Below, in pieces: positions 11,411 to 49,938 of a stretch of DNA of 64,000 bases; the first letter of the stretch is position 1, and each line of letters opens with the position of its first letter. The translations under genes were made by a program, and so were the position numbers. The notes under the pieces were generated by a model. That model saw only the letters and a program-made list of their open reading frames with translations. It was not told the origin of the DNA and ran no database searches. The stretch lies in assembly GCA_965214465.1 (NCBI GenBank), contig CBDCBX010000020.1:554363-618362 (forward strand), given 5' to 3'. The stretch is from Acidobacteriota bacterium (GTDB taxonomy: Bacteria; Acidobacteriota; UBA6911; RPQK01; CBDAPI01).

Positions 11411-11477
11411 CCCCAACCCCGCCCCGAAAAAGGGGCGAACACTAAAGCCGGGGCTTCCCCGCCCCGGCTTTTTCTTT
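11411..11477 (+). terminator. two-hairpin terminator-like repeat unit, copy 2 (group II intron insertion site)
   Basis: Same unit as 10151-10214. Hairpin 11447-11468, T-run 11469-11477. The intron 5' end GTGCG starts at 11478. Confidence 0.55.
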
Positions 11478-11530: not shown

Positions 11531-11581
<51 letters not shown>

Positions 11582-11886
11582 TGAAGGAAGCCGCAGGCAA
11601 AGCGCTGGCCTGACGAACAGGAATCGCATATGAGGCGGACGTGCTGGATGAGAAGGCAAATATCTTCAAAGTCCAATACCTGTACGGAAAGCACGGACGT
11701 AGATGCGGCGGGCATAAGCGTGAAGGTGGGTGCGCATTACCCGGGGAGGTCTGCCAGTAGGCCATAGTGCTACTGTCGTCGAGAGGCGGCGGGATGAACT
11801 GGTAGAAGTCAGCCGAGGGCATATTACCTCCATCGACCGGAGGGAAGGCCCGAACGCGAAGAAACGGAAAGGAGACTCGAATTTCG

Positions 11887-12599: not shown

Positions 12600-12810
12600 G
12601 GGCCAAACCGGCCACTGATTCCGATTGAAACCGGCCACCTGTTCCGGGCCAATCCGGCCGGTGATTCCGGGGCAAAGTAGGCCACTTTGCCGGGCTTTTC
12701 CGGAATCGGTGGTCAGGTTAGCGGAAAGTTCCTGCCCTCAGGAGTTTGCGACGCTGGGCAACGCGGACTATCGTTGCTCCTTTTTCACTTAGAGAGGAAG
12801 AGGAGAACAG

Positions 12811-15106: not shown

Positions 15107-15421
15107 AGGCAAAAAGGCTATGGAAACTGCCGCCCTGTGCAAACCCATTCAGCGCTTTGCAGATCTGCTCAGGATTCCCGCACGTGGGTTCTCACAGGGC
15201 TTGGAAAACTCCTCGCTGCGCTCGGCAGTTTCCCACAGTTCCCACCGCCTCTACGACTACTTCACACACATCTTTATCGGAGGTTTCTTGAATGCCAATC
15301 GATCCAAGCTACATTGACTCAAAACGGCCACCTGGCACATCATGAAATCCCCAGCGTCGCTTCGCTCCGACCGGGTGGCCACTTTCCCCGGATTGGGTGG
15401 CCGGTTTCACCGGAATACGCA

Positions 15422-16174
15422 GATGCCGCAAGGCGGTCCTCTCTCTCCCGTGCTCTCCAATGTGCTACTGGATGAGCTGGACAAGGAACTGGAGAGGCGA
15501 GAACATGCTTTCTGCCGCTATGCTGATGATTGCAATGTCTATGTGCGGTCGCAGCGAGCCGGTGAGCGTTGGTCTCGTTGACACAGTTTCTGGAGAAGCG
15601 CCTCAAGCTGAGAGTCAACACTGCCAAAAGTGCAGTGGATCGCCCGTGGAGGCGAAAGTTCTTGGGTTATTCGATGACGGCGCACCGGGAAACTCGGCTG
15701 AAAGTGGCCGCTAGCTCAGTGCAACGTCTGAAGAAACGGCTCAAGGTGGCTTTTCGTCAAGGAAGGGGACGCAACCGGCAACGATTCATCGAAGAACTCC
15801 AGCCTCTGCTGCGCGGATGGGTACAATACTTCAAGCTGGCAGAGGTGAAAGGGACCTTTGAGGAATTGGACGGCTGGATTCGGCGGCATTTGCGCTGTCT
15901 GATCTGGCGTCAATGGAAACGAACCTGGACCCGGGCCAAGAACCTGAGGGCGCGGGGCCTGACGGAAAAACGTGCATGGAAGTCCGCGACCAACGGACGG
16001 GGTCCCTGGTGGAATGCCAGAGCCTCCCACATGCACGCAGCTTTTCCCAAGGCCTACTTTGATCGGTTGGGTCTCGTGTCGCTGCTGACGGAGCAGCGTC
16101 GGTTTCAGCGTTTTTCGCGAACCGCCGTGGTACGGAACCGTATGCCCGGTGGTGTGGGAGGACGGCAGGGGTGA
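15422..16174 (+). pseudogene. group II intron reverse transcriptase-maturase, C-terminal part (RT motif YADD plus maturase X domain)
   Basis: ...PQGGPLSPVLSNVLLDELD...FCRYADDCNVYV then a maturase-like region (GWVQYFKLAE...). Splicing out the IS restores ...ARREGMPQGGPLSP.... Confidence 0.8.
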
Positions 16175-17979: not shown

Positions 17980-18072
17980 CCCCTCGAGAGAAACGACGGT
18001 CCTGAATCACGGGATGGACTCGATGCTTCTCACCTCTTCAAGGAAGTTTTGGCCATTGTAAACGGGGAGGTC

Positions 18073-19847: not shown

Positions 19848-19923
19848 GGGGGACAGGGTTCTCTCGGGTGGTGGGGCCGGCAGGTGCCAGGAAGGGACGT
19901 CAACTAGCGGAAATGACCCCGTG

Positions 19924-21486: not shown

Positions 21487-22026
21487 AGTTCTAGGGCGAC
21501 CTTAGCGCCTCAGCTCCGGTGTGGCTTGAGCCACTGCCCTATTTTGCTGGGATGCGGTCTCGATGACGCGCTCCAGTGTACCGGGTTCGAGCCGGTGTCG
21601 GAGACGGCAGGATCCCCGACGAATCCATTGCGAGGACCCAATTCCCCCCGCTGCTCCCGGCAGGAACACGCAGGGTGCGCCGGTGGCCTGCTCTAAGCCG
21701 AGATTCCCCATATCAGCCTCGGATCCGAGTTCCTCTGACCTGCCCATGACGAATACTCAAAACCTATCAGCCCTTCAACCAAGGAACAAGCGTTTTTCCT
21801 CATATTTCGGCCGAAAGTATTTGCGAACCTTCTTCTTCTCGTAGCGAGCCACGATTGGTTCCGCAGCCGCAGTCTACCCAGAATAGGCCCGCGGTCCTAA
21901 CATAGAGAGTGGACTCGGTTGTGGGGGTGGGTCACTCCCTCTGATTAATAAACAAAGTTGACACACCACTAGTCTCGTACGGCCCATTTTGTCGAACGCG
22001 TGCGGCTCAAGGACCGATGCAGGACA

Positions 22027-22167
22027 ATCGCTTTCCTGTAGGTGCCAAGTGTGTTCAAATCCTCGGGCGATGAACGAATCAATCTATCAGTGGGGAGTGG
22101 CTCATGCGAATTGAAGCCGTGGAAATGCTTGTTCAGCGGAGGGATAGAACCGAGAGGACATCCATCC
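22027..22167 (+). repeat. about 140-bp direct repeat, copy 1 (5' UTR plus first 22 codons of the hypothetical gene at 27084, truncated here)
   Basis: About 92% identical to 27008-27151. Encodes MRIEAVEMLVQRRDRTERTSIP then terminates. Confidence 0.7.
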
Positions 22168-22323
22168 CGGTCGTACCCAGGTAAGAAGTACGTAGACCCT
22201 CGTCATTCGTCATTCGGTAGACAGAAGGGCCTCGGCGATGTATAGTCAATGTATATCCGTGAATGATGACCGGGCCAGCGGCTCGGGACCTCTGGAGTTG
22301 CTCTCTCGCAGAGGAGGACCCTG

Positions 22324-25481: not shown

Positions 25482-26933
25482 CCTAGCAGCCCGTGGTGAA
25501 AGTCGCCTCTCGGTCAGCCATGGCCAATAGACTTGTGCCATGTCGATGGGCAAGCGTAAGAGACAGAGGCAGAGCGAGATGTGGGTGCCGGCAACAGAGC
25601 TGGCCAAAGCGCCGGGACACCCTTTTTACCAACGCCTGAACCGAGTGCTGGGCAAGCACGGTTTCGATGATTTTGTGGAAGCGGAATGCGCCGCTTTCTA
25701 TGCCCCCAGCCGAGGGCGGCCCGGCCTGGCACCGGGCATCTATTTCCGGCTGCTGCTGGTGGGTTACTTCGAAGGGTTGAGCTCGGAGCGAGGCATTGCC
25801 TGGCGAGCCGCTGATTCGCTGGCGCTGCGCGGTTTTCTGGGACTGAATCTGAGTGAGTCACCTCCGGATCATTCGACCATCTCCAGGACCAGGCGACTGA
25901 TCGATGTGGCCACGCATGAGGCGGTTTTCTCCTGGGTGCTGAAGCGGGTAGCCGAGAGCGGGTTATTGAATGGCAAGACGATCGGCATCGATGCCACCAC
26001 GCTGGAAGCCAATGCGGCGCTGCGCAGCATCGTGAGACGAGACTCCGAGCAGGGCTACGAAGAGTTCTTAACGGAGCTGGCAGTAGCCTCCGGCATCCAG
26101 ACGCCTACTCGAGAAGATCTGGCCCTACTGGACCGCAAGCGAACCGGCAAGGGATCGAACCAGCAGTGGAAGCACCCGCAGGATGGGGATGCGCGCATCG
26201 CCAGGATGAAGGATGGGCGGACGCATCTGGCGCACAAGGCAGAGCATGCAGTGGATCTGGAGACGGGAGCCATCGTCTCGGTCACGGTGCAAGGAGCGGA
26301 TCGAGGCGATACGCAAACGATGGTCAAGACACTGATACAGGCGGCCGAGCAGGTGGAACAAGCGCTGCCGAAGGGATCGGGCATCGAAGAGGTGGTGGCC
26401 GACAAGGGATATCACAGCAGCGAGCGGATGGTGGATTTAGAAGCGCTGGGACTGCGCAGCTATGTGAGCGAACCGAAACGAGGGAAAAGACGCTGGAGAG
26501 GAGACACTCAGGCCCGTGATGCGGTCTATGGGAACCGGCGACGAATCCGGGGTCGGCGAGGACGGCAACTTTTACGACAACGAGGTGAGCTACTGGAGAG
26601 ACCGTGTGCTCACCTTTACGAGACCGGCGGGATGAGACGGGTTCACGTTCGGGGCCATGAGAATGTCTTGAAGCGGCTGCTGATTCAGGTGAGCGGATTC
26701 AATCTGGGGCTGCTGATGCGCCAGCAGTTGGGTGTGGGCACGCCGCGGGGGCTGCAGGGGCGGATTTGCCTCGTCTTGCTCCTCATTTTGTCGCTGTGGA
26801 AGCGTCTGAAGGGCCTGTTTGGCTTGATTCCGACCGCCCAGACTCAAAAGTCCCGGTCAACGCTCCCGTCGCTTCTGCCACCGGTCCGCTCGGTCTGAAG
26901 TCTGAAAACCTATTTGCACCACGGGCTGCTAGG
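25482..26933 (+). mobile_element. IS5/IS1182-like insertion sequence
   Basis: Terminal IRs CCTAGCAGCCCGTGGTG (25482-25498) and the reverse complement at 26917-26933. Single transposase ORF. A solo copy of the right end recurs at 43230-43272. Confidence 0.65.
25540..26898 (+). CDS. IS5/IS1182-family DDE transposase
   Basis: 452 aa. N-terminal region (FYQRLNRVLGKHGFDDFVE, InsH-N-like) and DDE_Tnp_1-like core (IGIDATTLEANA ... ADKGYHS). Confidence 0.75.
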   Translation: MSMGKRKRQRQSEMWVPATELAKAPGHPFYQRLNRVLGKHGFDDFVEAECAAFYAPSRGRPGLAPGIYFRLLLVGYFEGLSSERGIAWRAADSLALRGFLGLNLSESPPDHSTISRTRRLIDVATHEAVFSWVLKRVAESGLLNGKTIGIDATTLEANAALRSIVRRDSEQGYEEFLTELAVASGIQTPTREDLALLDRKRTGKGSNQQWKHPQDGDARIARMKDGRTHLAHKAEHAVDLETGAIVSVTVQGADRGDTQTMVKTLIQAAEQVEQALPKGSGIEEVVADKGYHSSERMVDLEALGLRSYVSEPKRGKRRWRGDTQARDAVYGNRRRIRGRRGRQLLRQRGELLERPCAHLYETGGMRRVHVRGHENVLKRLLIQVSGFNLGLLMRQQLGVGTPRGLQGRICLVLLLILSLWKRLKGLFGLIPTAQTQKSRSTLPSLLPPVRSV

Positions 26934-27007
26934 ATCGGGTACCGGCAACCCTGCCAATCCCAAAGGGATCTCGACCTCTTTGAGAGAAACAATCTTCTTG
27001 AGCACCA

Positions 27008-27151
27008 TTGCTTTCTTATAGGCGCCAAGTGTGTTCAAATCCTGGGGCGATGAACGAATCAATCTGTCAGTGGGGAGTGGCTCATGCGAATTGAACCCGT
27101 GGAAATGCTTGTTCAGCGGAAGGACAGAACCGAAAGGACATCCATCCCCAT
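27008..27151 (+). repeat. about 140-bp direct repeat, copy 2 (native 5' region of the gene at 27084)
   Basis: See 22027-22167. Confidence 0.7.
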
Positions 27152-36305: not shown

Positions 36306-37967
36306 ATGATGTTTCATTCTGCATCCGTCCCGACCAAGACCCGGAGTGTTTTCAGACCAGGAACTGCAGCTTTCCTGCTGTCCCTGCTGGTGATGGCCGC
36401 AGCCTGGACAGGCTCACGCCCCCTGGAGGCTGCCAATGACAAGGCGGACCCCGATCTACTCAAGGCGCTCCAACAGTTCTCTGGGGTTCTGAGCCGAGTG
36501 GAGAGTAGCTACGCCACCGAGGTCGATTCTGCAGAGCTGGTAGAAAGCGCAGTACGAGGAATGCTGCGGACGCTGGACCCACACAGTTCCTTTTTTGCGG
36601 CCTCCGACTACTCAAAACTCCAAGAAGAGCAGGAAGGCCAGTACTTCGGCCTGGGAATACTGATTCGCCCGGCGGCGCCGGGCTCGGGCAGAGTCGTGGT
36701 GGTGGAGCCTCCCTCCCCTGGAACCCCCGCCTACAAAGTCGGACTTCAGCCTGGCGACGTGATTTTCAGGGTCGACGGAGAACCCATCGACGAGTGGGTT
36801 TACCCCGACGAGGTTATCCCCAGAATCAAGGGACCGAAGGGTACTACGGTCAAGATCAGCGTGCAGCGCCCCGGGGAAGCGTCCCCGCTCGAGCTTGAAG
36901 TGGAGCGCGATGCGATTCCCATCTACACCATCAAGCACGTCTTTCACCTGAAGCCCGAGGTGGGCTACATCCGCATCGAGCGCTTTGGCTCGACAACCGG
37001 GAAGGAGTTGCGTGATGCTCTGGAGGAGCTTGGTGAAAAGGAGCTCGAGGGTCTGGTTCTGGACCTTCGCAACAATCCCGGAGGCTCCCTCCGGGAAGCG
37101 ATTGCCGTTTCCGACCGGTTTCTGAAACGGGACCAGGTGATCGTCAAGACTCGCAACCGGGACGGGGAAACCAAACCCTATCCGGCGCCCGAAGGACGGC
37201 AGCATCTCTACCCGATGGTGGTCCTCATTAATCACTACTCAGCCAGCGGAAGCGAGATCGTGGCGGGTGCCCTGCAGGACCATGACCGGGCGCTGCTGCT
37301 CGGAGCAACGACGTTTGGCAAAGCTCTGGTGCAGACGGTCTTTCCGCTCCCGGGAGAGCGTGGGCTGGCACTGACCACGGGGCGCTACCAGACACCCAGC
37401 GGCCGCCTCATCCAGAGACCCTTTCAGCCCGGTTTCTATGACTACCTCTATGCCAGCCAGGGTGCAGCCCCGGCTCTGGACCAGGCCTTTCTGACCGACT
37501 CCGGAAGACCGGTCTATGGGGGAGGCGGAATCCGCCCCGATGTAGAAGAAGATATCGACCGCTATACTCCATTCGCCGCCAATGTGAATCGAAAGAACTT
37601 CTTCTATAAATTCGCGGGAATGCTGATCCATGGTGAGGTCGAAGGGGAAACGCGCTTCCAGCACTCCCTGGACGAGATTCGGGAGTTGAGCGGGCAGGAG
37701 CTCGACCAACTCAAGCAGGAAGTTGCCGTCTCCGAGGAGGGAGAGACTCTCGGGAGATTCCGACAGTTCTTGGAAGGAGAGGGGCTCGAGTTTTCGGACG
37801 CAGATTTCGATGAGAGCCGCCGCCAGCTAGCCAATCGCCTGCAGCAGGAAGTCTTCCTGGTCCTGTTCGGTGAGACTGAAGGAGTCCGGATTCAGCTTCG
37901 AATCGACAATCAGGTCCAGAAGGCACTGGAGCTGTTACCCCGGGCCCGGGACTTGATGGAACGGTAG
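36306..37967 (+). CDS. S41-family carboxyl-terminal processing protease (CtpA-like)
   Basis: 553 aa. Signal peptide, PDZ, VVLINHYSASGSEIVAGALQDHDRALLLGATTFGKALVQT (Ser-Lys dyad region). Confidence 0.8.
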   Translation: MMFHSASVPTKTRSVFRPGTAAFLLSLLVMAAAWTGSRPLEAANDKADPDLLKALQQFSGVLSRVESSYATEVDSAELVESAVRGMLRTLDPHSSFFAASDYSKLQEEQEGQYFGLGILIRPAAPGSGRVVVVEPPSPGTPAYKVGLQPGDVIFRVDGEPIDEWVYPDEVIPRIKGPKGTTVKISVQRPGEASPLELEVERDAIPIYTIKHVFHLKPEVGYIRIERFGSTTGKELRDALEELGEKELEGLVLDLRNNPGGSLREAIAVSDRFLKRDQVIVKTRNRDGETKPYPAPEGRQHLYPMVVLINHYSASGSEIVAGALQDHDRALLLGATTFGKALVQTVFPLPGERGLALTTGRYQTPSGRLIQRPFQPGFYDYLYASQGAAPALDQAFLTDSGRPVYGGGGIRPDVEEDIDRYTPFAANVNRKNFFYKFAGMLIHGEVEGETRFQHSLDEIRELSGQELDQLKQEVAVSEEGETLGRFRQFLEGEGLEFSDADFDESRRQLANRLQQEVFLVLFGETEGVRIQLRIDNQVQKALELLPRARDLMER

Positions 37968-37981
37968 GGAAACCAGGGGGC

Positions 37982-38046
37982 CCATCGTAGGGGCCGGTCT
38001 TGTGCCGGCCCGTTTGGCGGGCGACAACAAGGGTCGCCCCTACAAA
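37982..38046. repeat. REP-like two-hairpin extragenic element, copy A
   Basis: CGTAGGGGCCGGTCTTGTGCCGGCCCGTTTGGCGGGCGACAACAAGGGTCGCCCCTACAA. Inverted copy at 48423-48487. Both sit just 3' of a gene. Confidence 0.6.
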
Positions 38047-39419
38047 TCGTTCTCCGGGGGCTGGACCGGTCGAAAGCCCACCAGGGTCAGCGTCGCAACG
38101 ACAGCCACAGCGATCCCCTGCCAGGGTGAGAGGAAGGCAATGGCAAAGGCAATCAGCAACGCCGTGCTTCGCTCAATTCGAGTGTGCACAAGTCCAATGG
38201 CCACATAGAAACAGGCAAATCCGGTCAGCATCAGGGTCAAAGCCAGGGCGATCGGCATGAGTGGCTTGAGTAACGTCACAAGGGGCAGGATCATGTAAAG
38301 TAGCGGGGTTCCAAGACCGTAGTAAGACGAGATTCCGCTGAACAATGAATCGATTGCCCGCCGTCCCTCGGTCCAGCGCTGCACAATGATCACGTGCACG
38401 CCCGTCCAGAGTGCGCCCTGGGTCGGAAAGAAAGGTGCAAACAGGGCCATCAGCCCGTTCCTGATCGCCAGAGAATAGTGAGATCGGGTCAAATTGATGT
38501 CGATCTTTTCATCCGGACGGGAGGGAGTCGCCGACTTGAGGACTTCAATCCCGGTGATCAGATCCCCAAACAGAATGACATAGCCCATCAATGCCAGAGG
38601 AATGGTCTGCAGAAACATTTCCAGACCGGGCCACCCGATGCTGAAGGGAGAGGCCTTACTCCACAGATCAAACACAGGCGGGATCAGGATGCCCGACTGG
38701 ATCTCGTATTCCAGTTCGCCCACGAAGGGCCCTACGATTCCCGCCCCCACGAAACCCGGGAGAAGCCCCAGAGAGGCCAGAAAGGCGACCCACCTGTACT
38801 TCTGCTTGAGCCTCTGTACCGGGAGTGAAAAAGTCAGAAGCAGACACAGTCCCAGGGCAACCAGCGTACTCACCGGTTGAATGTCAAGGGCCTCCCCTTC
38901 CACCAGGAACACGCGGTACAAAGCCGCCAGGGCGGCTCCCATGACAATACCCGCTTTGAAGGTGGCAGGGAGCCACTTCATGAACTTCTTGCCCAGCCCC
39001 GTGAAGCCCATGAAAAAGAGAATCACGGTGAAGTTAAGCGAGACCGCCGTCATGAGCTGGAAACGTTCGGTGGGAGTAGGATACACAGCGAGGCCGTCTG
39101 CCCCGGTTGCCAGCACGACACTCAGAACCAGCGGCAGAGCCGGCGTCACCCAGCCGGGAGCAAAAGGCTCCCCAAAAACGATGAAGGAACTGCATACGAG
39201 CAGAGAAAGCAGCGCGATAAAAGCGACGGCCTCCTCGAAGACGAGGCCGAACTCGCCGGTCAGGAGGGGGGCCAGGGCCAGGCCGGTGGCGCCCGCGACC
39301 AGAAATCCCTGCAACAGTTCCGGAACTTCCATGCGGGTGTGATAGATGGGCACCCGACAGGTAAACGGGCCCCATTTCCATCCCGGTTGAACAGCGCCGT
39401 GTGGACGTTGGACTGGCAT
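38040..39419 (-). CDS. polytopic membrane protein (transporter-like, family not recognised)
   Basis: 459 aa, at least 10 TM segments. Confidence 0.5.
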   Translation of the reverse strand: MPVQRPHGAVQPGWKWGPFTCRVPIYHTRMEVPELLQGFLVAGATGLALAPLLTGEFGLVFEEAVAFIALLSLLVCSSFIVFGEPFAPGWVTPALPLVLSVVLATGADGLAVYPTPTERFQLMTAVSLNFTVILFFMGFTGLGKKFMKWLPATFKAGIVMGAALAALYRVFLVEGEALDIQPVSTLVALGLCLLLTFSLPVQRLKQKYRWVAFLASLGLLPGFVGAGIVGPFVGELEYEIQSGILIPPVFDLWSKASPFSIGWPGLEMFLQTIPLALMGYVILFGDLITGIEVLKSATPSRPDEKIDINLTRSHYSLAIRNGLMALFAPFFPTQGALWTGVHVIIVQRWTEGRRAIDSLFSGISSYYGLGTPLLYMILPLVTLLKPLMPIALALTLMLTGFACFYVAIGLVHTRIERSTALLIAFAIAFLSPWQGIAVAVVATLTLVGFRPVQPPENDL

Positions 39420-39515
39420 ATTGGGTCAGGATGGTACCGGAATGAGACCGCTTTCTAAAGGGCCGCGCCAACTTCGAGACCCCTGGCCGGCAGAGGCAGA
39501 TTTTGCGGCCGCAGA

Positions 39516-40886
39516 CTACTCCGTGGAGATGCGGTAGAGACTGCTTCCCCTCAAGTAGATCTCGTCTCCGACAGCCGCCATGGAGGCATCGAAGCCGTCC
39601 TCCAGCGAGTTGGTGGCCAGCACCTCGGGCTCGGATCCTGCCTTGACGACGACGGTCTTGCCTGCTCTGTCGGTAACGTACACCCGGCCGCCCGCCCCCA
39701 CGGGAGAAGCATAGATGTTGCCCAGGCCTTCCAGACGCTGCTGATAATGGCGCTCGCCGGTGGTGGCGTCAAAAGCGGAAAGAATTCCGGTATTTCCCTT
39801 CAGCAAGTAGATGATTCCCCCGTAGAGCAGCGGAGAGGGAACGTAGGGAGTATCGCGATCAAGGCTCCAGAGGATCGCTTCAGAACCCGTAATGTCTCCC
39901 CTGGCCTGGGCCAGACGAACCGCCATCAGGGCGTTCCCACGAAAGCCGCTGGTCAGGTAGACAATCCCATCCTCAGACACGGGCGAGGGAATTGTATTGT
40001 TGGTCATGCCGGTCAATTCCCAGAGCAGCTTCCCGTCGGAAAGATCGTAGGTGCGCACCTTGCGGGTGGCGCTGGTCACCACCTGGGCAACGCCTTCGTG
40101 CTCGACGACCAGGGGCGTAGCCCAGGAGGTAATCTCATCCCGTTCTGCTCGCCACAGTTCCTCACCGGTTTCTTTGTCCAGGGCGACAATGAAAGACTCT
40201 CCCTCGTGGTCCCAGGGGATGACAATGGCCTGATTGTGGAGCACCGGGGAAGCGCCCTCTCCGAAACTGACCTTGATGGTCATCTTCCCAAAGGCCTTCT
40301 TCCATTTGACGTTCCCCTCAGTATCGAGACAGTAGAGCCCGCGGGACCCGAAAAAAGCGTAAATGTGTTCTCCATCCGTGACCGCCGAGCCCCCGGCGAA
40401 GGATCCCGTCTGGTGAATTCCTTCGTGAGGAACAACTTCCTCGACCGTTTTCTCCCACGCGATCTCGCCGGTCTGCCGGTCGATGGCCAGAACAACGAAA
40501 CGCAAATACTCGGTTGGCGGTGTCCTGTTCCTGTGGAATCCCCTTCGGCCGCGCCGGCCCGCCGGCTGGTCCCCCTGAGGTGAAGGTTCGGGTTCGGGCT
40601 GAGGCGGAGCTTCAATCTTGTTGCCGGTCGGAACTGCAGTCGTCAGGTAGATCCGATTCCCCCACAGGACCGGACTGCTGGAACCTTTTCCTGGAATCGC
40701 CACTTTCCAGCGGATGTTCTGATCTTCGCCCCACTCGACCGGAGGGCTTCCGGTGCCGGCGGCGCCGGTCGCATTCGGACCTCTCCACTGTGGCCATTGC
40801 TGATCGGTATCGGCCAGAGGGGGTCCGGCTAGCGCAACTGCTGTCAGCAAAAAGACTGTGGCCAGACACATCCACTTCACGTTCAT
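39516..40886 (-). CDS. secreted PQQ-like beta-propeller repeat protein
   Basis: Signal peptide. Repeated ...G.IY.....G.L.A.D..TG...W blades typical of PQQ/BamB-like propellers. Confidence 0.7.
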   Translation of the reverse strand: MNVKWMCLATVFLLTAVALAGPPLADTDQQWPQWRGPNATGAAGTGSPPVEWGEDQNIRWKVAIPGKGSSSPVLWGNRIYLTTAVPTGNKIEAPPQPEPEPSPQGDQPAGRRGRRGFHRNRTPPTEYLRFVVLAIDRQTGEIAWEKTVEEVVPHEGIHQTGSFAGGSAVTDGEHIYAFFGSRGLYCLDTEGNVKWKKAFGKMTIKVSFGEGASPVLHNQAIVIPWDHEGESFIVALDKETGEELWRAERDEITSWATPLVVEHEGVAQVVTSATRKVRTYDLSDGKLLWELTGMTNNTIPSPVSEDGIVYLTSGFRGNALMAVRLAQARGDITGSEAILWSLDRDTPYVPSPLLYGGIIYLLKGNTGILSAFDATTGERHYQQRLEGLGNIYASPVGAGGRVYVTDRAGKTVVVKAGSEPEVLATNSLEDGFDASMAAVGDEIYLRGSSLYRISTE

Positions 40887-41136
40887 ATAGAAATCTCCCT
40901 GTTGGTCAGTCTAGACATGCGGAATCTATCAGACCATCTTACGCCAGTCTGACCTTCGGGGTTACAGGCTGGTGGACTCGCCAGATCTAATCAGAACCGG
41001 GGGCGTTAGGCCGCGGCTACCACTCGGCCCTCGCTACCACTCGGCCCTCGCTAGCGCTCGGGTTCTGATTCAATGGGAGTGAACGCCCTTTGACACTCTT
41101 GCTGGATTTCGGCACCATTCCAGGCGAGGAGCAGGT

Positions 41137-42192
41137 TTGAATTCACTCAGAGACCCCATAGGTCAGCTTCCGCTTGCCCTGCGGGGACTGTGCCTCGCAA
41201 CCCTGATTCTGCTGGCAGCTCCGGGATCCTCGGGTGCCCAGACCAGACAGGTTGAAGGGTCTCTCTCCTCAGGAGCTCGGCTTTTTCGAGATCACTGCCA
41301 GCGCTGTCACAATCCGGAGCTTCGGAACTCGGGACTGGACCTCTCCTCGAGAGAATCAGCCCTGGTCGGCGGCAAGCAGGGTCCGGCTCTCCATCTCGAC
41401 CAACCAGAAGAAAGCCCTGTCTTCAAGAAAACCGCCTCCGGGGAGATGCCTTTTGATGTCAGACTGCCGGAGACGGAAAAACTGCAGCTTCTGGAGTGGC
41501 TCGCATCCGCTGCACCCTGGCCGCAGTATGCGGCGGATGGACCTGCTCTGCCCGACGACGAAGTGCACCGGAATGTCCGAGAGGGAAATACAACCTCCAG
41601 CCAATTTACGGAAGGCAAAGACGAACAGCACTGGGCGTTTGCCCGGACTGAGAAACCGCGTGTACCCGGAGTCGAGGCTGGGAATACACACCCGATTGAC
41701 GCCTTTCTCCTCACTCAGCAGGAAAAGCTGGGGCTCACACCAGTGGGAGAGGCGGACCGCCAAATACTTGTCCGTGGAGATCCACCCGGATGCCCTGGCC
41801 ACAGCTACGAACCTGGATGTCGCCAGCTGGCCGGCCGACATCGTCGACAACCCGGACACCTGGCGGATTCCACTCTGGTAGTGTGGGGAGGAGAATTTGG
41901 TCGGCTCCCCATCAGCCAGCGTTCGGAGTTCGGGACCCAGGGACGCGACCACAACCCGCGGGGGTTCTGCATGTGGATGGCCGGGGGCGGTATCAAGGGT
42001 GGAGTCAGCTACGGTGCCACCGACGAGATCGGCTGGAAGGCTGTGGAGGGTCGAGTCTCAGTCAATGACCTGCACGCCACGATTCTGCACCTGATGGGGC
42101 TGGATCACGAACGCCTTACCTACAGTCACAACGGGCGGCCCTTCCGCCTGACCGATGTGGCCGGCAGGCTGATCCATCCGATTCTGGCTTAA
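41137..42192 (+). pseudogene. chimeric PSCyt1 (CxxCH) plus DUF1549 N-terminus fused to DUF1501 C-terminus (internal deletion derivative)
   Basis: Signal peptide. CQRCH heme-binding motif. DUF1549-like [12 protein letters not shown]...HPIDAFL. Then abruptly the DUF1501 C-terminus [11 protein letters not shown]...[14 protein letters not shown].... Confidence 0.5.
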
Positions 42193-42839
42193 CCTCCAAG
42201 ACTCTCGAGCCGCTTTTCAAAGTAACCGCGCCAGCTCGGGGGCAGGGCCTCAGTCTCGATGGCCTTGCGCAGGAGCTCCCGGTTCTCCCGCTCGGTTGTA
42301 TAAAGGCTCGTCACTTCCCGAACTCGAAGATCGGAGTCGGGGCTCTTCTCCAGGAGCTCGATCGTATCTCCTGCCGCTACCCGACCTTCCTCTTCAACGC
42401 CAAAGTAAAAACCGGTCCTCTGACTCTGCAGAAAGCGCTTGATCATCTTGGGATCACCGAAACGGAGCCCCAGCTTGAAACAGGGCATACGCGGTTCGGT
42501 GACGACCAGTTGGGCCGTGCCCACCCGAAACCGATCCCCGATCGAAACCGACTCTTCGTCCAGGCCTTCCGTCGTCAGGTTCTCGCCAAACCGACCCCAC
42601 TCGAATACCGTGCCGGGCAGTTCCCCGCGCCAGAACTCATAGTGCTCGGAAGGATAGGCGTAGACGACCTTGGTGGGACCGCCGTGAACCGTCAGATCAG
42701 CCTGCCGGTCTCCGTCCAGATTGAGCCGGGCAACTCGCACCGGTCCTTCCACGGGCTCCTTGAAGATGCCCGTGGAGATCGTTCGCCCCTGCCAGTAGAC
42801 ATCTCGGGGCAAGCCGACATTGACCGAAACGATACGCAT
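42189..42839 (-). CDS. MOSC-domain protein (YiiM-like)
   Basis: 216 aa. [12 protein letters not shown]...[12 protein letters not shown]...PCFKL motifs. Confidence 0.8.
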
Positions 42840-43229
42840 CGGTATCTATTCTTGGCCATCTCGCCTGGGTGTGCAAACCGCTTGTCGCTACCGCGCAGGC
42901 ATACAGCATCGAAAACCATCGACCAAGGGCTTTTTATTGGGGACTCAGAGGGGATCACGATCACTCCAGATGGAGAGCTGGTCTATGTGCAAACACCAAA
43001 GAATCAGGCTCGGCTCTGCTCGGCGCGCTTGTTGGCTGGGGCGATCTCTTCAGGCTCTGTCCTGGCCGGCGGCAAGGGCGGCAAGCCAGACAAGGGAACA
43101 CCAGCCAGCTTCACCGTCCTCTTCAGCGGCGAGGTCTCGAGCAGCAATCTCCTGGGAGATTGCTCGGGGAACCGCATAACTAACAGATCGAACAAGATCG
43201 GGCAACTTCGTCGACACCGCTCTAGCGGT

Positions 43230-43272
43230 CTGAAGTCTGAAAACCTATTTGCACCACGGGCTGCTAGGCGTG
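43230..43272 (+). repeat. solo copy of the IS5/IS1182-like right terminal sequence
   Basis: CGGTCTGAAGTCTGAAAACCTATTTGCACCACGGGCTGCTAGG is identical to 26891-26933. No transposase adjacent. Confidence 0.55.
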
Positions 43273-43448
43273 GCGAGAGTCGATGGCGCCCCCACTTGCC
43301 CGGACCTCCTCGAGGAAGAAGGATCACCGACACTGAATCCGACCGCGTGGCGGCTGCCAAGCAGTCACTAGCAGTTCGCTCGATTTCACCCCCCCCTTCT
43401 GTCATATAATCCCTCCGAATTATCTATACATGCCTGAGGGATCGATCT

Positions 43449-44756
43449 ATGAACAAGGAATATGACGTCATCATCATTGGAGCCGGTATTATCGGGTGTT
43501 CGACCGCCTTCGAGCTGTCCAAGAAAGGCCACCGGACTCTGAACATCGACAAGAATCCTGTGGCCGGTTACGGGTCCACCAGTAATTCCTGCGCCATTGT
43601 CAGAGCTCACTACTCCACCTACGAAGGTGTGGCCATGGCCTACGAGAACTTCTACTATTGGCAGAACTGGGAGAAGTACCTGGACGCTGAAGATGAGAGC
43701 GGGTACTCCCAGTTCCGTAACACAGGCACCATTCTGCTCAAGACCCGGGGACACGATTTCGAGAAGGTCCTGCGTCGATACAGAGAAGTGGGAGTCGAAT
43801 TCGAGGAGTGGGATCTGGCGGAACTGGAACAGAAGATGCCTCTTTTCGATCACCACTGTTTCTATCCTCCCCGGCGACCCAGTGATCCCAAGTTCTGGAT
43901 CAAGCCCGAGGAGCAGATTGACGGGGCGATCTTTACGCCTGGCTCCGGATACGTGAACGATCCCCAGCTGGCCACTCACAACCTGATGCGCGCCGCCGAA
44001 GCCAAAGGGGGCGAGTTCCTGTTCAACAGTGCGATCACGGCCATTCCGCGCAGCAAGGGCCGAGTGCAGGGCGTTGTGCTTGCCGACGGCACCCGAATTG
44101 AGGCTCCCGTCGTGGTTAATGTGTCCGGACCCCATTCCTTTGTCATCAATCGGATGGCCGGTGTGGAAGAGGGCATGAACATCAAGACCAGAGCGTTGCG
44201 CCACGAGGTTCACCATGTCCATTCTCCCGAGGGCTTTGATTTTCAAAAAGACGGCTATCACACCTCCGACGGCGACACGGCCATCTACTTCCGTCCCGAA
44301 ACCGGCAACTCGATTCTGGTAGGCAGTGAGGATCCGGAATGCGACGAGAAGGTCTGGGTGGAAGACCCGGATGACTTCGATCGGAATGTTAGCCCGGAGC
44401 AGTGGGAAGCTCAGGTGTACCGGCTGGCAAAACGCATTCCCTCGCTACGGATTCCCAACCGGCCCAAGGGACTGGTGGATCTTTACGATGTCTCGGACGA
44501 CTGGATTCCCCTTTACGACAAATCCGACCTGAAGGGCTTTTACATGGCCGTCGGGACCAGCGGTAACCAGTTCAAGAACGCCTCGGTGGTGGGTGTGCTG
44601 ATGAGAGACCTGATCGAGGCCTGCGAAAACGGGCGGGATCACGATGCCGACCCGGTACAGGTGGAGCTGGAGCATACCGGGCTGACCCTCAATTCCGGTT
44701 TTTACTCCCGACTCCGTGAGATCAATCGGGATAGTAGTTTTTCGGTGAACGGGTGA
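43449..44756 (+). CDS. FAD-dependent oxidoreductase (DAO family; sarcosine-oxidase-beta/glycine-oxidase-like)
   Basis: N-terminal DVIIIGAGIIGCSTAFELSKKG Rossmann motif. 435 aa. Confidence 0.75.
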   Translation: MNKEYDVIIIGAGIIGCSTAFELSKKGHRTLNIDKNPVAGYGSTSNSCAIVRAHYSTYEGVAMAYENFYYWQNWEKYLDAEDESGYSQFRNTGTILLKTRGHDFEKVLRRYREVGVEFEEWDLAELEQKMPLFDHHCFYPPRRPSDPKFWIKPEEQIDGAIFTPGSGYVNDPQLATHNLMRAAEAKGGEFLFNSAITAIPRSKGRVQGVVLADGTRIEAPVVVNVSGPHSFVINRMAGVEEGMNIKTRALRHEVHHVHSPEGFDFQKDGYHTSDGDTAIYFRPETGNSILVGSEDPECDEKVWVEDPDDFDRNVSPEQWEAQVYRLAKRIPSLRIPNRPKGLVDLYDVSDDWIPLYDKSDLKGFYMAVGTSGNQFKNASVVGVLMRDLIEACENGRDHDADPVQVELEHTGLTLNSGFYSRLREINRDSSFSVNG

Positions 44757-44762
44757 ATCTTG

Positions 44763-44790
44763 AATTCCAGATTCCAGATTCCAGATTCCA
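44763..44790. repeat. heptanucleotide microsatellite (ATTCCAG)x4, followed by GCTGAC-type repeats to about 44855
   Basis: Direct reading of the intergenic sequence. Confidence 0.6.
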
Positions 44791-45015
44791 AATCGGGGAG
44801 AGAGCCAGGAGCTGACGGGCTGACGGCTGACAAACTGAGCTGACACCTATCTGGAAGAACCGGGGCTGCCAGGCCGGGGCGGGGAGTGTGGAGTCAGGCT
44901 ACCCGGGCCGCCCGGGAGGCGGGGGGACCTTGGAACCTGGAATCTCCCCACGATCCCGGGTATAAACAACCTGTCCCTTTCTTCAATCAGTAATGTCTTG
45001 GAAAGTGAGGAAGTG

Positions 45016-48000
45016 ATGAACCTCAAGAGTTGGTTCTTCCGTGTGGGAAAGCTTCTGCCTGCCGGGGCAGTTCTTTCCCTTGTCACCACGGCACCGACCT
45101 CGGCCCAGCAGGCGAAGTATCTGGACCATCGGGTCGATCCGACCTGGGATGTCACCCGGGCCCGCGGGGAGACGTACGACCTCGACTTCACGACGGAAGA
45201 GGGAACCTGGATGTCAGTCGACATCTCTCCGGACGGAAACTGGGTGGTCTTCGATCTGCTGGGTCACATCTATCGAGTCCCAGCCGGTGGAGGGAACGCT
45301 GAAACCCTGACTGAGGGTAGCGGCATCGCTCTCAATTTCCACCCCCGCTACTCTCCCAACGGACTCCAAATCGCTTTCATCTCGGATCGGACCGGTCAGA
45401 ACAACCTGTGGACGATGGATGCTGACGGGTCCAATCCCGAGCCGGTATTTCTGGATCCGGTCAGCCGTCTCACCGGTCCTGTCTGGATGCCCGATGGAAA
45501 ATCGATCATTGCGGTTCGCGAATTTCCCACCTACGCACTGCATCGGCGATCAGCACGGATCTGGCGCTTCCCGGTGAAGAGCCGCAGCCTCGATCCTGAA
45601 GCTCTGCTGGGTGAGCCCTCCGGAACCCAGGCCTACTGGCCGACCGTATCCCCCGACGGCTCGGCTATCTATTTCCAGTCCAACACCTTCGCGGAACCTG
45701 TACACGGGATGATGCGGTATCAGCACATCCGCCGCCTCGATCTCGGGACTCGTACCGTCGTCAGCACAACTGCGGGTGCAGGAGCCCAGGTGTACCGTGC
45801 CGAGGGAAGCACGGAGATGGCACCCGAGATCTCGCCGGACGGACGGCTGCTGGCCTTTGCTCGCAGAATTCCAGGCGGCCTCCTCGAGTACCGGGGACAT
45901 CGGCACCGCGGGCGAACGGCCCTGTGGCTGCTCGATCTGGAGACGGGCAGGCAGCGGATTCTGATGGATCCGATCACCTTCGACATGCAGAACGCCCACG
46001 GTATGAAAAACCTGCGGGTTCTCCCTGGCTACGCCTGGTCCAAAGATTCGCAGTCGCTGGTGCTCTCCCAGGGCGGCAAGCTGCGGCGCGTGTGGCTGGA
46101 TGGTCGCGTGGAGACGATTCCCTTCCGGGCCCGGGTACATCGCACTTTGACAGAGCAGACCCGCTCCCGCCACGACATTTCCGATGAGCCTTTCCGTTCC
46201 CGCCACATCCGCTGGCCTGCCGTGACACCCGACGGCAAGACGGCTGTCTTTGAGGCCGTGGGTTGGATCTGGCGGATGGAACTGCCATCGGGCACGCCCC
46301 GGAAACTGGCCGATCAGGGGGAGAACCTGTTTCAGTTCATGCCCGAAATATCCCCCGACGGACAACACGTCACTTTTGTGTCCTGGAATGACCACACGCT
46401 GGGACACCTCTGGCGAGTCCCCATCGACGGTGGAGTCCCTCAGCACCTGACAGCACAGGCGGCAGAGTATCTGTTTCCGACCTGGACTCCGGACTCTCGA
46501 TCCGTGGTCGTTTTCGGCTCTCAAGAAGTGGATCCGGCTGCGCTGGCGGGAGGAGCTCCGGCGCACTACCGGCGGGTTCTGCTGGACGCGGTGACAGGAG
46601 AGTCCAGGATTCTACAGCAGCGGGCCCGGCCGCAGTCGGCCCGTTTTGGACCCGATGGGAGGATTTATTATCTGGTGAGCTACGGCGCAGGCGATGTCCA
46701 GAGTCCGCTGGCCCAGGGCAAGCCGGTTCCGGATCGGTATTCGGACCTGGTCTCGATTGATGCGAAAAAGGAAGGCGATCCACAGCACCACCTGCGTTTC
46801 CCGGCGGCCCGGGAAGCGGTTGTCTCGCCCGCAGGCGACTGGGTCGCCTATCGGGAGAATTTCGACATCTGGCTGGCGCCTCTGCATCGAACTACGGCGG
46901 TCTATCACTCGGAGACACCACTGGTCTGGGAAGGACCCGAGAAACCCTACGAGACCATTAAGGAAGATCCGCGGGCTGGAATCCGTCGTTTGAGCACCGG
47001 CGGGGGAGCCTATGTCCGCTGGCGGGACGACCACACGGTGCAATTCTCCAGTGCCGATCAGATTCACCTCTACGACACCCGAACCCGGAACACCAGGATT
47101 GTGGACGTGGAGGTCCGGATCCCCCGGCCGGTTCCAGCGGGATCCATCGCTCTGCGGGGCGCCCGGATTGTCACTCTCCACAACCGACAGGTGATCGAGA
47201 ATGGCACGATTGTGGTCAAAGGCGCGCGCATCGAGTGCGTGGGAGCCTGCGACCTCTCGTCGATCGACTACGTTGTGCCCCTGGATGGAAAAACCATCAT
47301 CCCCGGGTTCGTGGACGTCCACGGTCATCAGGGCCTGGGTGGACCACTCCCGATCATTCCTCAGCACCTGCCCTCGACCTCATTCTTTCTGGCCTACGGT
47401 GTCACCACCACACTGGATCCCTCCACCAGCAGCTTTGCCTACTTCCCCGTTGCTGAGCTGGTTCGAGCCGGGCGCATGGTGGGACCAAGGATGTATGCCA
47501 CCGGCGAAGTGCTGCTGCCCCAGGCTCCTCTGACGGGGCCGCCCAATTATGCGGAGGCCGAGCATCTGGTACGCCGGATCGCGACCCAGGGTGGAATCTC
47601 AGTCAAGATCTATCTGACCCCTCGCCGGGATCAGCGGCAGATGATCTCTGAGGCGGCCAGAAAGTTCGGGCTTTCCGTAACCAACGAAGGAGCCGACCTC
47701 TACCACAATGTGGGAGCGATACTGGACGGGAACACCGGCTTCGAGCACCCGCTTCACTACCTGCCCATGTGGGACGATGCGATTCAGTTTTTTGCCCGAA
47801 CCAGAGCCGTTTATTCTCCCACCCTGATCGTGGCCAGCGCGGGGCCCTGGTTGGAAGAGTACTACCAGTCCCGCAGCGATCTGTGGAACGACGAGAAGCA
47901 GCGCCGTTTCATGCCCTGGCGAAATCTGGCCAGACGCATCAATCACGCGGTCAAACCGAAGACGGAATATCCATTCCCCCTCATGATGGAGGCCGTTGCC

Positions 48001-48399
48001 GATCTCCTGCGTGCCGGTGGACAAGCGTCCATCGGAGGGCACGGAGAGCAGTGGGGTCTGGACTCTCACTGGGAAGTGTGGGGCTATGCGGAGGCGCTCG
48101 ACCCCATCGAGGCCCTGGAGATGGCCAGCCTCGGAGGGGCCTACATGGCCGGCCTGGAGGATGACCTGGGGTCCATCGAGACCGGAAAGCTGGCAGACCT
48201 GATCATCCTCAACTCGAATCCACTGGAAGCCATTGCGAATACCATCGATATTGCCTACGTCATGAAGGGCGGGAGACTCTTCAACGACGATACGCTGGAC
48301 GAAGTCTGGCCCAAAACGAGACCCTATGGAGTCCCCCCCTGGCTGGAAGAGGAGGTCTACCGAACCGATACACGATCGGTCAGCCATTGGGATCAATGA
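45016..48399 (+). CDS. large secreted protein: TolB/PD40-like beta-propeller repeats fused to a C-terminal metal-dependent amidohydrolase domain
   Basis: Signal peptide. Repeated ...SPDG...FVS.R.G..NLW... PD40 blades. C-terminal GFVDVHGHQ amidohydrolase metal motif. Start taken at MNLKSW. Confidence 0.7.
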   Translation: MNLKSWFFRVGKLLPAGAVLSLVTTAPTSAQQAKYLDHRVDPTWDVTRARGETYDLDFTTEEGTWMSVDISPDGNWVVFDLLGHIYRVPAGGGNAETLTEGSGIALNFHPRYSPNGLQIAFISDRTGQNNLWTMDADGSNPEPVFLDPVSRLTGPVWMPDGKSIIAVREFPTYALHRRSARIWRFPVKSRSLDPEALLGEPSGTQAYWPTVSPDGSAIYFQSNTFAEPVHGMMRYQHIRRLDLGTRTVVSTTAGAGAQVYRAEGSTEMAPEISPDGRLLAFARRIPGGLLEYRGHRHRGRTALWLLDLETGRQRILMDPITFDMQNAHGMKNLRVLPGYAWSKDSQSLVLSQGGKLRRVWLDGRVETIPFRARVHRTLTEQTRSRHDISDEPFRSRHIRWPAVTPDGKTAVFEAVGWIWRMELPSGTPRKLADQGENLFQFMPEISPDGQHVTFVSWNDHTLGHLWRVPIDGGVPQHLTAQAAEYLFPTWTPDSRSVVVFGSQEVDPAALAGGAPAHYRRVLLDAVTGESRILQQRARPQSARFGPDGRIYYLVSYGAGDVQSPLAQGKPVPDRYSDLVSIDAKKEGDPQHHLRFPAAREAVVSPAGDWVAYRENFDIWLAPLHRTTAVYHSETPLVWEGPEKPYETIKEDPRAGIRRLSTGGGAYVRWRDDHTVQFSSADQIHLYDTRTRNTRIVDVEVRIPRPVPAGSIALRGARIVTLHNRQVIENGTIVVKGARIECVGACDLSSIDYVVPLDGKTIIPGFVDVHGHQGLGGPLPIIPQHLPSTSFFLAYGVTTTLDPSTSSFAYFPVAELVRAGRMVGPRMYATGEVLLPQAPLTGPPNYAEAEHLVRRIATQGGISVKIYLTPRRDQRQMISEAARKFGLSVTNEGADLYHNVGAILDGNTGFEHPLHYLPMWDDAIQFFARTRAVYSPTLIVASAGPWLEEYYQSRSDLWNDEKQRRFMPWRNLARRINHAVKPKTEYPFPLMMEAVADLLRAGGQASIGGHGEQWGLDSHWEVWGYAEALDPIEALEMASLGGAYMAGLEDDLGSIETGKLADLIILNSNPLEAIANTIDIAYVMKGGRLFNDDTLDEVWPKTRPYGVPPWLEEEVYRTDTRSVSHWDQ

Positions 48400-48422
48400 G
48401 AGAGGGTTCTGGGGGAATAAGA

Positions 48423-48487
48423 TTCGTAGGGGCGACCCTCGTGGTCGCCCGCCGAAACGGGCCGGCACAAGACCGGCCCCTACGGTT
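48423..48487. repeat. REP-like two-hairpin extragenic element, copy B (inverted relative to 37982-38046)
   Basis: CGTAGGGGCGACCCTCGTGGTCGCCCGCCGAAACGGGCCGGCACAAGACCGGCCCCTACGG. Confidence 0.6.
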
Positions 48488-48555
48488 CTTGCCGTCCCGG
48501 GCAGACGTCTCGCTCCATACCGTGACCAAGTCCATGATGGAAGAGGGGTGAAAGC

Positions 48556-49851
48556 ATGAGCACAGTTAAACTGATTCAAATCGCCACTTTGATTCTGGCG
48601 CTCAATGTGGGGCTCACCGCAGGCAACTTTCGTGCCTCGGTCGTGAAGGTCGACATTACTCCCGACCCGGACACTCCTCACTGGCTGGCTGGGTACTTTG
48701 CCCGTCAGTCCACCGGTGTGCATGACCGCCTCTACCACCGGATCGTCGTCATGCACGACGGCGAGAAGCCTTTCGTTCTGGTCTCGACCGACGTCGTCGG
48801 ATTCTCTCCGGTCCTGTATGACGAGTTCGCTGAACAGCTAGAGAAGGAAACTGGAGTGGGCAGAGAACAGCTCTGGTGGACCGTGACCCACACTCACTCG
48901 GCACCCGAAGTGGGGCCTCCGGGACTGGGCCGGAGTTTCCTGGGGGAGCGCTACCAGCACGAGTGGGATCGCGAATACCAGAGGTTCCTGAGAGATTCCC
49001 TCTCCGCAGGGATCCGAGAAGCGCTGGCTGATTTAATCCCGGCCCGGCTGGCGGTGGGCTCGGGAATGTCCCTGGCCAACATCAACCGCCGGGCCCCCGG
49101 ACCCGACGGGACCGTCACTCTGGGACTGAATCCGGAAGGAGCCGTGGACCGCAAGATCGGCCTCCTTCGCCTGGAGCGCCCCGACGGGTCCCCAATCGCG
49201 CTGATTGCCAATTACGCGGTACACGGGACCTACTTGAGCGGGCGCAATCTGGAGATCAGCGGAGATGTACAGGGCGTTGTCGCATCCTATGTGGAGGATA
49301 AGCTGGGCGTCCCCATGCTGTTCATCAACGGGGCTGCAGGCAATCTTGCGCCGATTTACACTTTCAATTCTAATTTTGCTTATATCACCAAGTTCAACGT
49401 GTTGCTGGGAGATCGGATCCTGGATGTGAATCGGTCGATTCGTGCGGACGAGAGTGCAGAGATCGACTTCGAATTCGGTGAGATCATCGTCGAAACTCCC
49501 AAGTTCCCGAGCCTGAAATGGCCCGAAGACCATCATCGCTATCTTCGCACGACCGAGGACGGACAGGCACTGGTCCGCCTCCCGGTACGGTTCTTTAAGA
49601 TCAGAAGGGATATCGTTCTGTGGGCCGCGCCCCTGGAAATGTTCTGTGAATACGCCATCAAGATCCGGAATCTGTCGCCCTTTCCCAACACTTTCTATTT
49701 CGGCTATGCCAACGGGTGGCTCGGGTATCTTCCCACAGCCGTGTCCTACGGACAGGGAGGCTACGAGGTTCGAGTCACTCCCTACACGGAACAGGCGGAA
49801 ACCGACTTCACCGAGGCGGTAGTGGGGTATTTGCAGGGGATGCCGAGGTAG
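48556..49851 (+). CDS. neutral/alkaline ceramidase-like hydrolase
   Basis: Signal peptide. N-terminal region WLAGYFARQSTGVHDRLYHRIVVM...HTHSAPE resembles the Ceramidase_alk N-terminal domain. Confidence 0.65.
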   Translation: MSTVKLIQIATLILALNVGLTAGNFRASVVKVDITPDPDTPHWLAGYFARQSTGVHDRLYHRIVVMHDGEKPFVLVSTDVVGFSPVLYDEFAEQLEKETGVGREQLWWTVTHTHSAPEVGPPGLGRSFLGERYQHEWDREYQRFLRDSLSAGIREALADLIPARLAVGSGMSLANINRRAPGPDGTVTLGLNPEGAVDRKIGLLRLERPDGSPIALIANYAVHGTYLSGRNLEISGDVQGVVASYVEDKLGVPMLFINGAAGNLAPIYTFNSNFAYITKFNVLLGDRILDVNRSIRADESAEIDFEFGEIIVETPKFPSLKWPEDHHRYLRTTEDGQALVRLPVRFFKIRRDIVLWAAPLEMFCEYAIKIRNLSPFPNTFYFGYANGWLGYLPTAVSYGQGGYEVRVTPYTEQAETDFTEAVVGYLQGMPR

Positions 49852-49938
49852 GTTCTGGGTTCTGGGTTCTGGAAACTTTAGTTGCCTTCAGCCACCCCGG
49901 TACCCGACAATTGAACCGTCAACCAGGAGGTACTGTCG

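Follow-up and report, generated by a model that had tools for sequence, protein, structure and literature searches.

Inverted GTAG-headed hairpin doublets at gene ends in an Acidobacteriota genome: probable dimers of a REP family common to many phyla

Short palindromic doublets stand at two gene ends in the window, the whole 64-kb stretch of Acidobacteriota DNA that we analysed. The first (copy A) lies between convergent genes and starts 19 nt past the TAG of an S41/PDZ peptidase gene (36306–37967); on its other side, a 459-aa open reading frame (ORF) on the reverse strand (38040–39419), called as a gene in the public assembly, ends on a TAG within the element itself. The second (copy B) lies between co-directional genes, starting 26 nt past the TGA of a tricorn-like/amidohydrolase gene that ends at 48399, with a ceramidase-like gene (48556–49851) beginning 72 nt beyond it. 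The exact limits are 37987–38043 for copy A, with the unit that we call REP1 on the forward strand and REP2 on the reverse strand, and 48426–48483 for copy B, with REP2 on the forward strand and REP1 on the reverse strand (Table 1). The copies are therefore mutually inverted, and 57 of 60 core columns of their alignment are identical (95%), the differences being one indel and two substitutions; with flanks included, average identity is 87% over 92 alignment columns. A first-pass annotation of this DNA had reported reverse-complementary copies at 37982–38046 and 48423–48487 that are about 85% identical, which we confirm, the figure being fair over those wider coordinates.

Table 1 Parts of the two window doublets, further doublets in the sibling assembly and transposases linked to the family
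Feature	Position or locus	Strand	Description
Copy A REP1	37987–38011	+	GTAG head, 8-bp stem (last pair T-G), loop CTTGT; GTAGGGGCCGGTCTTGTGCCGGCCC
Copy A spacer	38012–38018	.	GTTTGGC, 7 nt
Copy A REP2	38019–38043	-	GTAGGGGCGACCCTTGTTGTCGCCC
Copy A TAG in REP2 head	38040–38042	-	Stop codon of the 459-aa ORF 38040–39419
Copy A flank beside REP2 head	38044–38048	-	GATTT; GATTC in most copies
Copy B flank beside REP2 head	48421–48425	+	GATTC
Copy B REP2	48426–48450	+	GTAGGGGCGACCCTCGTGGTCGCCC
Copy B spacer	48451–48458	.	GCCGAAAC, 8 nt
Copy B REP1	48459–48483	-	GTAGGGGCCGGTCTTGTGCCGGCCC
Doublet	L131 5926–5985		Decayed; 18 nt after rpoC
Doublet	L131 11800–11857		32 nt after UbiA-family gene
Doublet	L132 4277–4333		GTAG gives the TAG stop of PfkB-family gene 3327–4280
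Doublet	L132 8800–8856		2 nt after RNase H gene
Transposase P0122	L175		72% identical to L169 transposase
Transposase P0123	L176–178		64% identical to L169 transposase
Transposase P0146	L179/180		46% identical to L169 transposase; labelled Candidatus Brocadiae

Each copy is built from two 25-nt units in inverted orientation, with their GTAG heads outward and a spacer of 7–8 nt between them. REP1 (GTAGGGGCCGGTCTTGTGCCGGCCC) is identical in copies A and B and is paired with REP2 (GTAGGGGCGACCCTYGTKGTCGCCC); the two arms have 16 of 25 positions in common and differ in their stems. Folded singly, either unit leaves four bases (GTAG) unpaired and forms a G+C stem of 7–8 bp with a loop of 5–7 nt, the predicted DNA folds in copy A reaching −9.7 kcal/mol for REP1 (z = −4.0) and −8.0 kcal/mol for REP2 (z = −5.1). 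The complete doublets also fold better than shuffled controls on both strands, as RNA (z from −2.5 to −4.1) and as DNA (z from −3.4 to −4.4), which bears out the hairpins marked at first pass. The terminal CGTAGGGGC/GCCCCTACG arms described there are present as well, but they do not form a separate outer stem: they consist of the two GTAG heads with the first stem bases, and overlap the hairpin stems. Because GGGGC is part of the stem of each hairpin, an outer stem and two full hairpins compete, and the minimum-energy folds alternate between one long imperfect hairpin and two hairpins of similar energy (RNA, −41.3 to −43.3 kcal/mol); DNA folding of the doublet likewise predicts both forms. Elsewhere, the 25-nt unit is found solitary or paired over 1–89 nt, from which we take the 25-nt hairpin to be the unit and the 60-nt object to be its dimer.

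Chance does not account for the pair. A 26-nt probe for the left half, allowing up to 3 mismatches, matches copies A and B alone in the window (0.00 sites expected from 100 dinucleotide-preserving shuffles), and a probe for the right half (REP2) finds 2 sites versus 0.02 expected. A third doublet was sought in the 64-kb window with both half probes and a repeat scan, and none was found. Rfam 15 gives no gathering-level hit at either copy, and a nearby miRNA match is at chance level (E = 0.54). Readings as a CRISPR, attC, tRNA-like element or riboswitch were discarded, there being no regular array, no tRNA and no Rfam hit.

To sample more of the species, we followed two multi-copy transposases encoded in the window to other loci. 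Six loci amounting to 128 kb elsewhere on the source contig held no family member. A sibling assembly, 99.3–99.9% identical to the source where the two overlap, yielded four further doublets in about 0.3 Mb (Table 1), and the element is thus not confined to two copies genome-wide. The source and sibling sequence together hold six doublets in an estimated 0.4 Mb of non-redundant sequence (overlapping loci removed), which extrapolates, with a wide error margin, to tens of doublets per 5.7-Mb genome. All six follow gene ends in convergent or co-directional spacers and are extragenic or touch the stop codon; the GTAG head itself supplies that codon in two (copy A and L132 4277–4333). REP1 is paired with an inverted REP2 across 7–8 nt in every case and is identical in five of the six, with variation in the REP2 loop and the spacer. 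The bases preceding GTAG on the REP2 side are GATTC, GATTT, GACTC or GATGT in all six, the common feature on the REP1 side being limited to a pyrimidine. A REP1+REP2 doublet of the window type also occurs in two metagenome-assembled genomes labelled Acidobacteriota (L062 and L116) and in a metagenome contig (L140).

A cluster look-up returned at least 15 related assemblies. Both window sites are empty in related species, at 85–89% nucleotide identity. In one related species (L181), whose flanking genes are 88.5% identical in nucleotide sequence, the copy A site is empty: the TAG of the peptidase gene is followed directly by CATTC-AATCGGTATTTTCCCGGGGCTGGACCGG (CATTC-AATCGG), whereas in the window the TAG is followed by 15 extra bases, CATC, the 57-nt doublet and then AAATCGTTCTCCGGGGGCTGGACCGG. 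This comparison of filled and empty sites reveals no target-site duplication. Read on the strand of REP2, the empty junction is CGATT|GAATG, and the GATTY before REP2 together with the GATT at this one clean empty site would be in keeping with a short fixed target 3′ of which the element inserts. In a second related species (L183; 81–88% identity), only 52 nt, without an element, separate the tricorn-like gene from the ceramidase-like gene, compared with 156 nt in the window. A third relative (L182) was uninformative for copy B, as the whole tricorn-like gene is missing there.

The 459-aa ORF that ends within copy A is also absent from L181, where an indel of 1.3 kb, at about 38100–39412 in window coordinates, leaves the peptidase and PQQ-propeller genes adjacent. 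The ORF has no Pfam match, its 90% cluster has two members only, and its last 20 or so codons cross sequence that is intergenic in L181 up to the TAG of the REP head. Some 2 kb further on, a 351-aa ORF (41137–42192) combines an N-terminal PSCyt1 domain with only the C-terminal third of DUF1501; at the corresponding position L181 has two separate genes, a 719-aa PSCyt1/PSCyt2/PSD1 gene and then a DUF1501 gene. In the window, a deletion seems to have joined the two. PSCyt1, PSD1 and DUF1501 domains give the window a planctomycete-like character.

The hairpin is not confined to close relatives. We searched a species-representative genome collection with a degenerate unit consisting of GTAGGGGC, four stem bases, a CTYGT loop, pairing bases and GCCC, written as a pattern that spans REP1 and REP2 (GTAGGGGCSRSYCTYGTKSYSGCCC) and does not force pairing. 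It occurs in at least 117 stretches from many phyla versus fewer than one expected by chance, an arithmetic estimate from the information in the pattern and the size of the collection. The matching records include Chloroflexota, Acidobacteriota, Planctomycetota, several proteobacterial classes, Bacteroidota, Firmicutes (Flavonifractor), Gemmatimonadota, Patescibacteria, Deinococcales and Latescibacterota. Among the matches listed, the commonest core is GTAGGGGCGACCCTTGTGGTCGCCC (58 hits), and other cores have a GCGGCC/GGCCGC stem (27 hits) or a GCGGGC/GCCCGC stem (15 hits); many hits are dimers whose partner carries another stem.

Complementarity in the stem is kept as its sequence changes. 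All four degenerate stem positions are paired in 138 of 143 hits among the matches listed, versus 9% by chance, and of 46 distinct partner sequences, picked by a GTAGGGG head and proximity alone, 35 have 7 or 8 of their 8 stem positions paired, with at least 10 different stems. In a set of 34 units, from which poorly pairing and probably spurious partners had been left out by selection, 97% of cells are paired, and in five of the eight pairs both sides have changed. Covariation in this set scores 0.574, whereas shuffles give 0.16 and sliding the partners gives no more than 0.15. The GTAG head is the same in all units, the GGG after it and the CTTGT loop are nearly fixed, and a pyrimidine precedes GTAG in 87% of 142 hits among the matches listed.

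Derivatives of the family were seen in L116 (OZ240092.1, around 5230–5370), L008, L036, L043, L045, L048, L056, L064 and L169. Some are collapsed palindromes with two heads only (GTAGGGGCGGAGTCGCCCCTAC); others are tandem iterations of the 3′ part of the unit, such as GACCCTTGTGGTCGCCC three times over, and look as if cleavage and rejoining, or slippage, had been repeated at one side of the hairpin. In L116, the 5′ half of a REP1 directly adjoins the start codon (ATG) of the gene that follows the REP cluster downstream.

An exact REP1 scan of metagenomes returned 34 stretches, among them a 1-kb contig (L169) that carries a 167-aa Y1 transposase gene with an HVH motif and a YIATNP tyrosine motif, set between arrays of REP1-type and GCGGCC-type units. 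Three homologues of this protein (P0122, P0123 and P0146; Table 1) likewise have family units on both sides, within about 40–310 nt. In total, RAYT-like genes are flanked on both sides by the family in at least seven loci, exact or 1-nt-variant REP1 included, and a profile search for the clade found RAYT-like ORFs adjoining REP hits in L005, L030, L048 and L104. The linked transposases best match NF047646 (REP-associated tyrosine transposase), at 62–80 bits against a curated NCBIfam cut-off of 80 bits that most proteins of the clade just miss; against the IS200 model they score 20–29 bits (cut-off 55). Their superfamily is large, with 21,750 cluster representatives at E ≤ 1e-3 and 9,847 at E ≤ 1e-10, and for one member, from Thermoanaerobaculia, more than 100 homologues are 50–65% identical, including proteins from Nitrospira, Delta- and Alphaproteobacteria and Acetithermum. 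Neither a RAYT nor any other Y1 gene turned up in the window, in the further 128 kb of the source contig or in the roughly 0.3 Mb of sibling loci. The idea, raised at first pass, that the element is a RAYT substrate is thus favoured by family REPs that flank RAYT-like genes in other genomes, but no RAYT accompanies it in the roughly 0.5 Mb covered from the source and its sibling.

Two other RAYT genes near family hits were not counted. One, in L118 (NF047646, 97 bits), lies between two family REPs and was dropped as a link because its homologues in Mucilaginibacter (L173 and L174) have other flanking repeats (GTAGTC..GACTAC and CGAAGTCAGAGACTTCG) and no GTAGGGGC units. The repeats that flank these Sphingobacteriales/Mucilaginibacter genes in all three loci are TGTAGTC-NNN-GACTACA and CGAAGTCAGAGACTTCG, and in L118 they stand directly beside GTAGGGGC-family units, so that two REP families are juxtaposed. 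The other, in L170 (88.5 bits), is 2.7 kb from a REP1 hit and has no clear family flanks.

We hold with good confidence that the doublets are head-outward dimers of GTAG REP hairpins, that is, BIME/REPIN-like non-autonomous DNA elements of a REP family common to many phyla. The REP/BIME class to which the first-pass annotation had assigned them agrees with the unpaired GTAG head, the short G+C hairpin, the inverted dimers and the extragenic location just past the 3′ ends of genes. Strong G+C hairpins on both strands, placed just downstream of stop codons and between convergent or co-directional genes in all six copies, would also be expected of structures that act mainly as transcription terminators or mRNA 3′-end stabilizers and that arose, or were selected, in place without being mobile. 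We judge this very unlikely. No T-run follows either window copy and a consensus terminator scan of 37500–49000 calls neither, against the bidirectional terminator that had been entertained at first pass; sequence as well as structure is kept between loci and phyla, the unpaired GTAG head and the CTTGT loop included; the same sites lack the element in related species; and transposase genes elsewhere have the family at their flanks. Relative to the upstream gene, the copies show no orientation bias, with three of the six each way, which argues against a strand-specific role in RNA.

Two further readings accept mobility and differ in the enzyme. The doublets could be PATEs of a conventional multi-copy IS200/IS605 element, moved by the TnpA of that insertion sequence rather than by a single-copy domesticated RAYT: the Y1 chemistry would be common to both, with hairpin ends and no target duplication, and the conserved GATTY 5′ of REP2 and the GATT at the empty site recall the fixed tetra- or pentanucleotide 3′ of which IS200/IS605 elements insert. 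The linked transposases nevertheless score far higher with the RAYT model than with the IS200 model and are without a TnpB partner in the loci seen, their flanks are REP arrays rather than distinct left and right ends, and about 0.5 Mb of the species contains no IS200-like gene, which leaves this origin improbable. Least credible is an origin as a MITE from a DDE-type insertion sequence, which would carry terminal inverted repeats and show a target-site duplication. The element is indeed small, palindromic and multi-copy, in a genome rich in DDE and rve insertion sequences, but no copy has a flanking direct repeat, the empty-site comparison is free of duplication, the ends match those of no insertion sequence in the window, and solitary 25-nt units are unexpected for MITE ends.

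Under the preferred interpretation as REP dimers, we infer mobilization by a RAYT by analogy with characterized enzymes. The copies would have been placed, and would perhaps still be maintained, by a RAYT-like transposase: as in E. coli TnpA-REP and IS200/IS605 TnpA, a Y1 HUH enzyme would recognize the folded single-stranded hairpin together with its GTAG head, before cutting and rejoining single-stranded DNA, with no duplication of the target. The outward GTAG heads present one reading frame with a TAG stop, whichever side a gene comes from, and the retention of copies at gene 3′ ends probably reflects tolerance there. REPs in E. coli are reported to act in mRNA 3′-end stability, and the doublet might have an effect on mRNA 3′-end formation or stability. 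The REP interpretation explains two oddities of gene ends, namely a stop codon supplied by the element and spacer lengths that differ between species, and it allows the window palindromes to be annotated as REP-type mobile-element remnants, with no need for a new category.

The covarying stem and the fixed GTAG head and CTTGT loop, found beside one RAYT-like clade, suggest a recognition code that would depend on sequence in the head and loop and on shape in the stem. A more far-reaching proposal is that one REP hairpin (Y-GTAGGGGC, N4 stem, CTTGT loop, the bases that pair with the N4, GCCC) and one RAYT-like clade form a single, sequence-conserved partnership across well over a dozen phyla, among them Chloroflexota, Acidobacteriota, Planctomycetota, Proteobacteria, Bacteroidota, Firmicutes, Gemmatimonadota, Patescibacteria and Deinococcota. 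We advance this tentatively, as something that may well turn out otherwise; that the breadth of the family is both real as a single system and so far undocumented is similarly doubtful. If true, it would mean either very old conservation of a recognition code or repeated transfer between phyla, in contrast to REPIN–RAYT pairs seen as lineage-specific and vertically inherited, and the window doublet would be one outpost of the system. A 25-nt hairpin that recurs across phyla is in any case a lead for work on REPIN–RAYT evolution and on the specificity of HUH enzymes.

A literature search with the raw sequence or the encoded peptides returned nothing relevant. GTAG-tagged REPs, the closest known system, are described as 20–40-bp G+C palindromes with an unpaired GTAG at one end, which fall into 24 families and have stems of 6–9 bp with complementary changes between sub-families; they form head–head (HH) dimers with the GTAG heads outside, lie between convergent or co-directional ORFs and sometimes overlap ORF ends, and some families are associated with RAYT genes (PMC3733652). 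The window doublet has these defining features of GTAG-tagged REPs and of their head–head dimers, and it departs from them in the loop, a conserved 5-nt CTTGT here as opposed to mostly 2–4 nt in the published families (PMC3733652). The peptides listed there for GTAG-20 and GTAG-21 of Rhodopirellula baltica differ from those of our unit, the comparison with the 24 families being by way of those peptides only (PMC3733652).

The doublet resembles the BIMEs of E. coli, with their Y- and Z-type REPs, in being an inverted hetero-dimer of two REP types with a short linker, and it resembles the TnpA-REP/RAYT system in its GTAG head and in the linked arrangement of a single Y1 transposase gene flanked by REPs (PMC3333891, PMC3479197). 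It differs in copy number (tens per genome by extrapolation, compared with hundreds for E. coli BIMEs), in giving no evidence for IHF or gyrase motifs, and in a linked transposase clade that is divergent and mostly below the NCBIfam cut-off. As with the REPINs of Pseudomonas fluorescens, the doublet rather than the single REP is the repeated unit in the source species, presence or absence differs among relatives, and the repeats stand on the flanks of RAYT genes, here those of the linked clade (PMC3116915). Unlike a strict REPIN, its arms share 16 of 25 positions, so that the long hairpin is imperfect, and whereas REPIN–RAYT systems are described as lineage-specific and vertically inherited, here the unit is nearly constant across phyla (PMC3116915). 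RAYT Groups 1 and 4 span 17–21 bacterial classes, including Caldilineae, Chlorobia and Cyanobacteria, and their flanking 16-mers are moderately repeated, with 12–14 copies, a breadth and modest repetition that fit the modest copy number and wide spread found here (PMC5581495). Wide RAYT groups with moderately repeated flanking 16-mers are thus known already; less ordinary is the constancy of the unit across phyla.

Several other elements were noticed in the window and in the loci compared with it. A group II intron, with Rfam domains RF02001 and RF01998 at 11563–11850, appears to be split by an IS21-family element over 11563–16174: its reverse transcriptase ORF (11887–12618) stops after the RVT_1 domain and is followed by IstA (12811–14373) and an IstB-like ORF that extends to 15106, copies of this IS21 element differing slightly from one another. 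A sibling locus (L137) has a 201-aa GIIM maturase ORF at the position that matches window 15569–16174. A 44-nt exact direct repeat resembling a terminator hairpin closely precedes the intron, at 10169–10212 and 11430–11473. An rve-type insertion sequence at 18072–19848 has imperfect terminal inverted repeats of 52 nt, with its 528-aa transposase present on at least 22 contigs, and a DDE_Tnp_1/DUF772 insertion sequence at 25579–26898 encodes a 439-aa transposase found on at least 16; a 43-nt stretch over the stop codon of the latter (26891–26933) recurs alone at 43226–43268.

Simple repeats of the GGTTCTGGG/TCCAGATTCCAGA type stand right after genes at 1740–1782, 44762–44790 and 49846–49888 and in L183 at 9949–10000, and one of these sits in the empty copy B spacer of a related species. 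On the source contig, L123 carries right after a gene a GTAG-ended perfect palindrome (17647–17675; GTAGGGCACGGTT-GATAA-CCGTGCCCTAC), which may be a member of a second REP-like family or a lone terminator hairpin. A 148-nt direct repeat, 92% identical between its copies at 22021–22168 and 27001–27148, 5 kb apart, is also found in the sibling locus L137.
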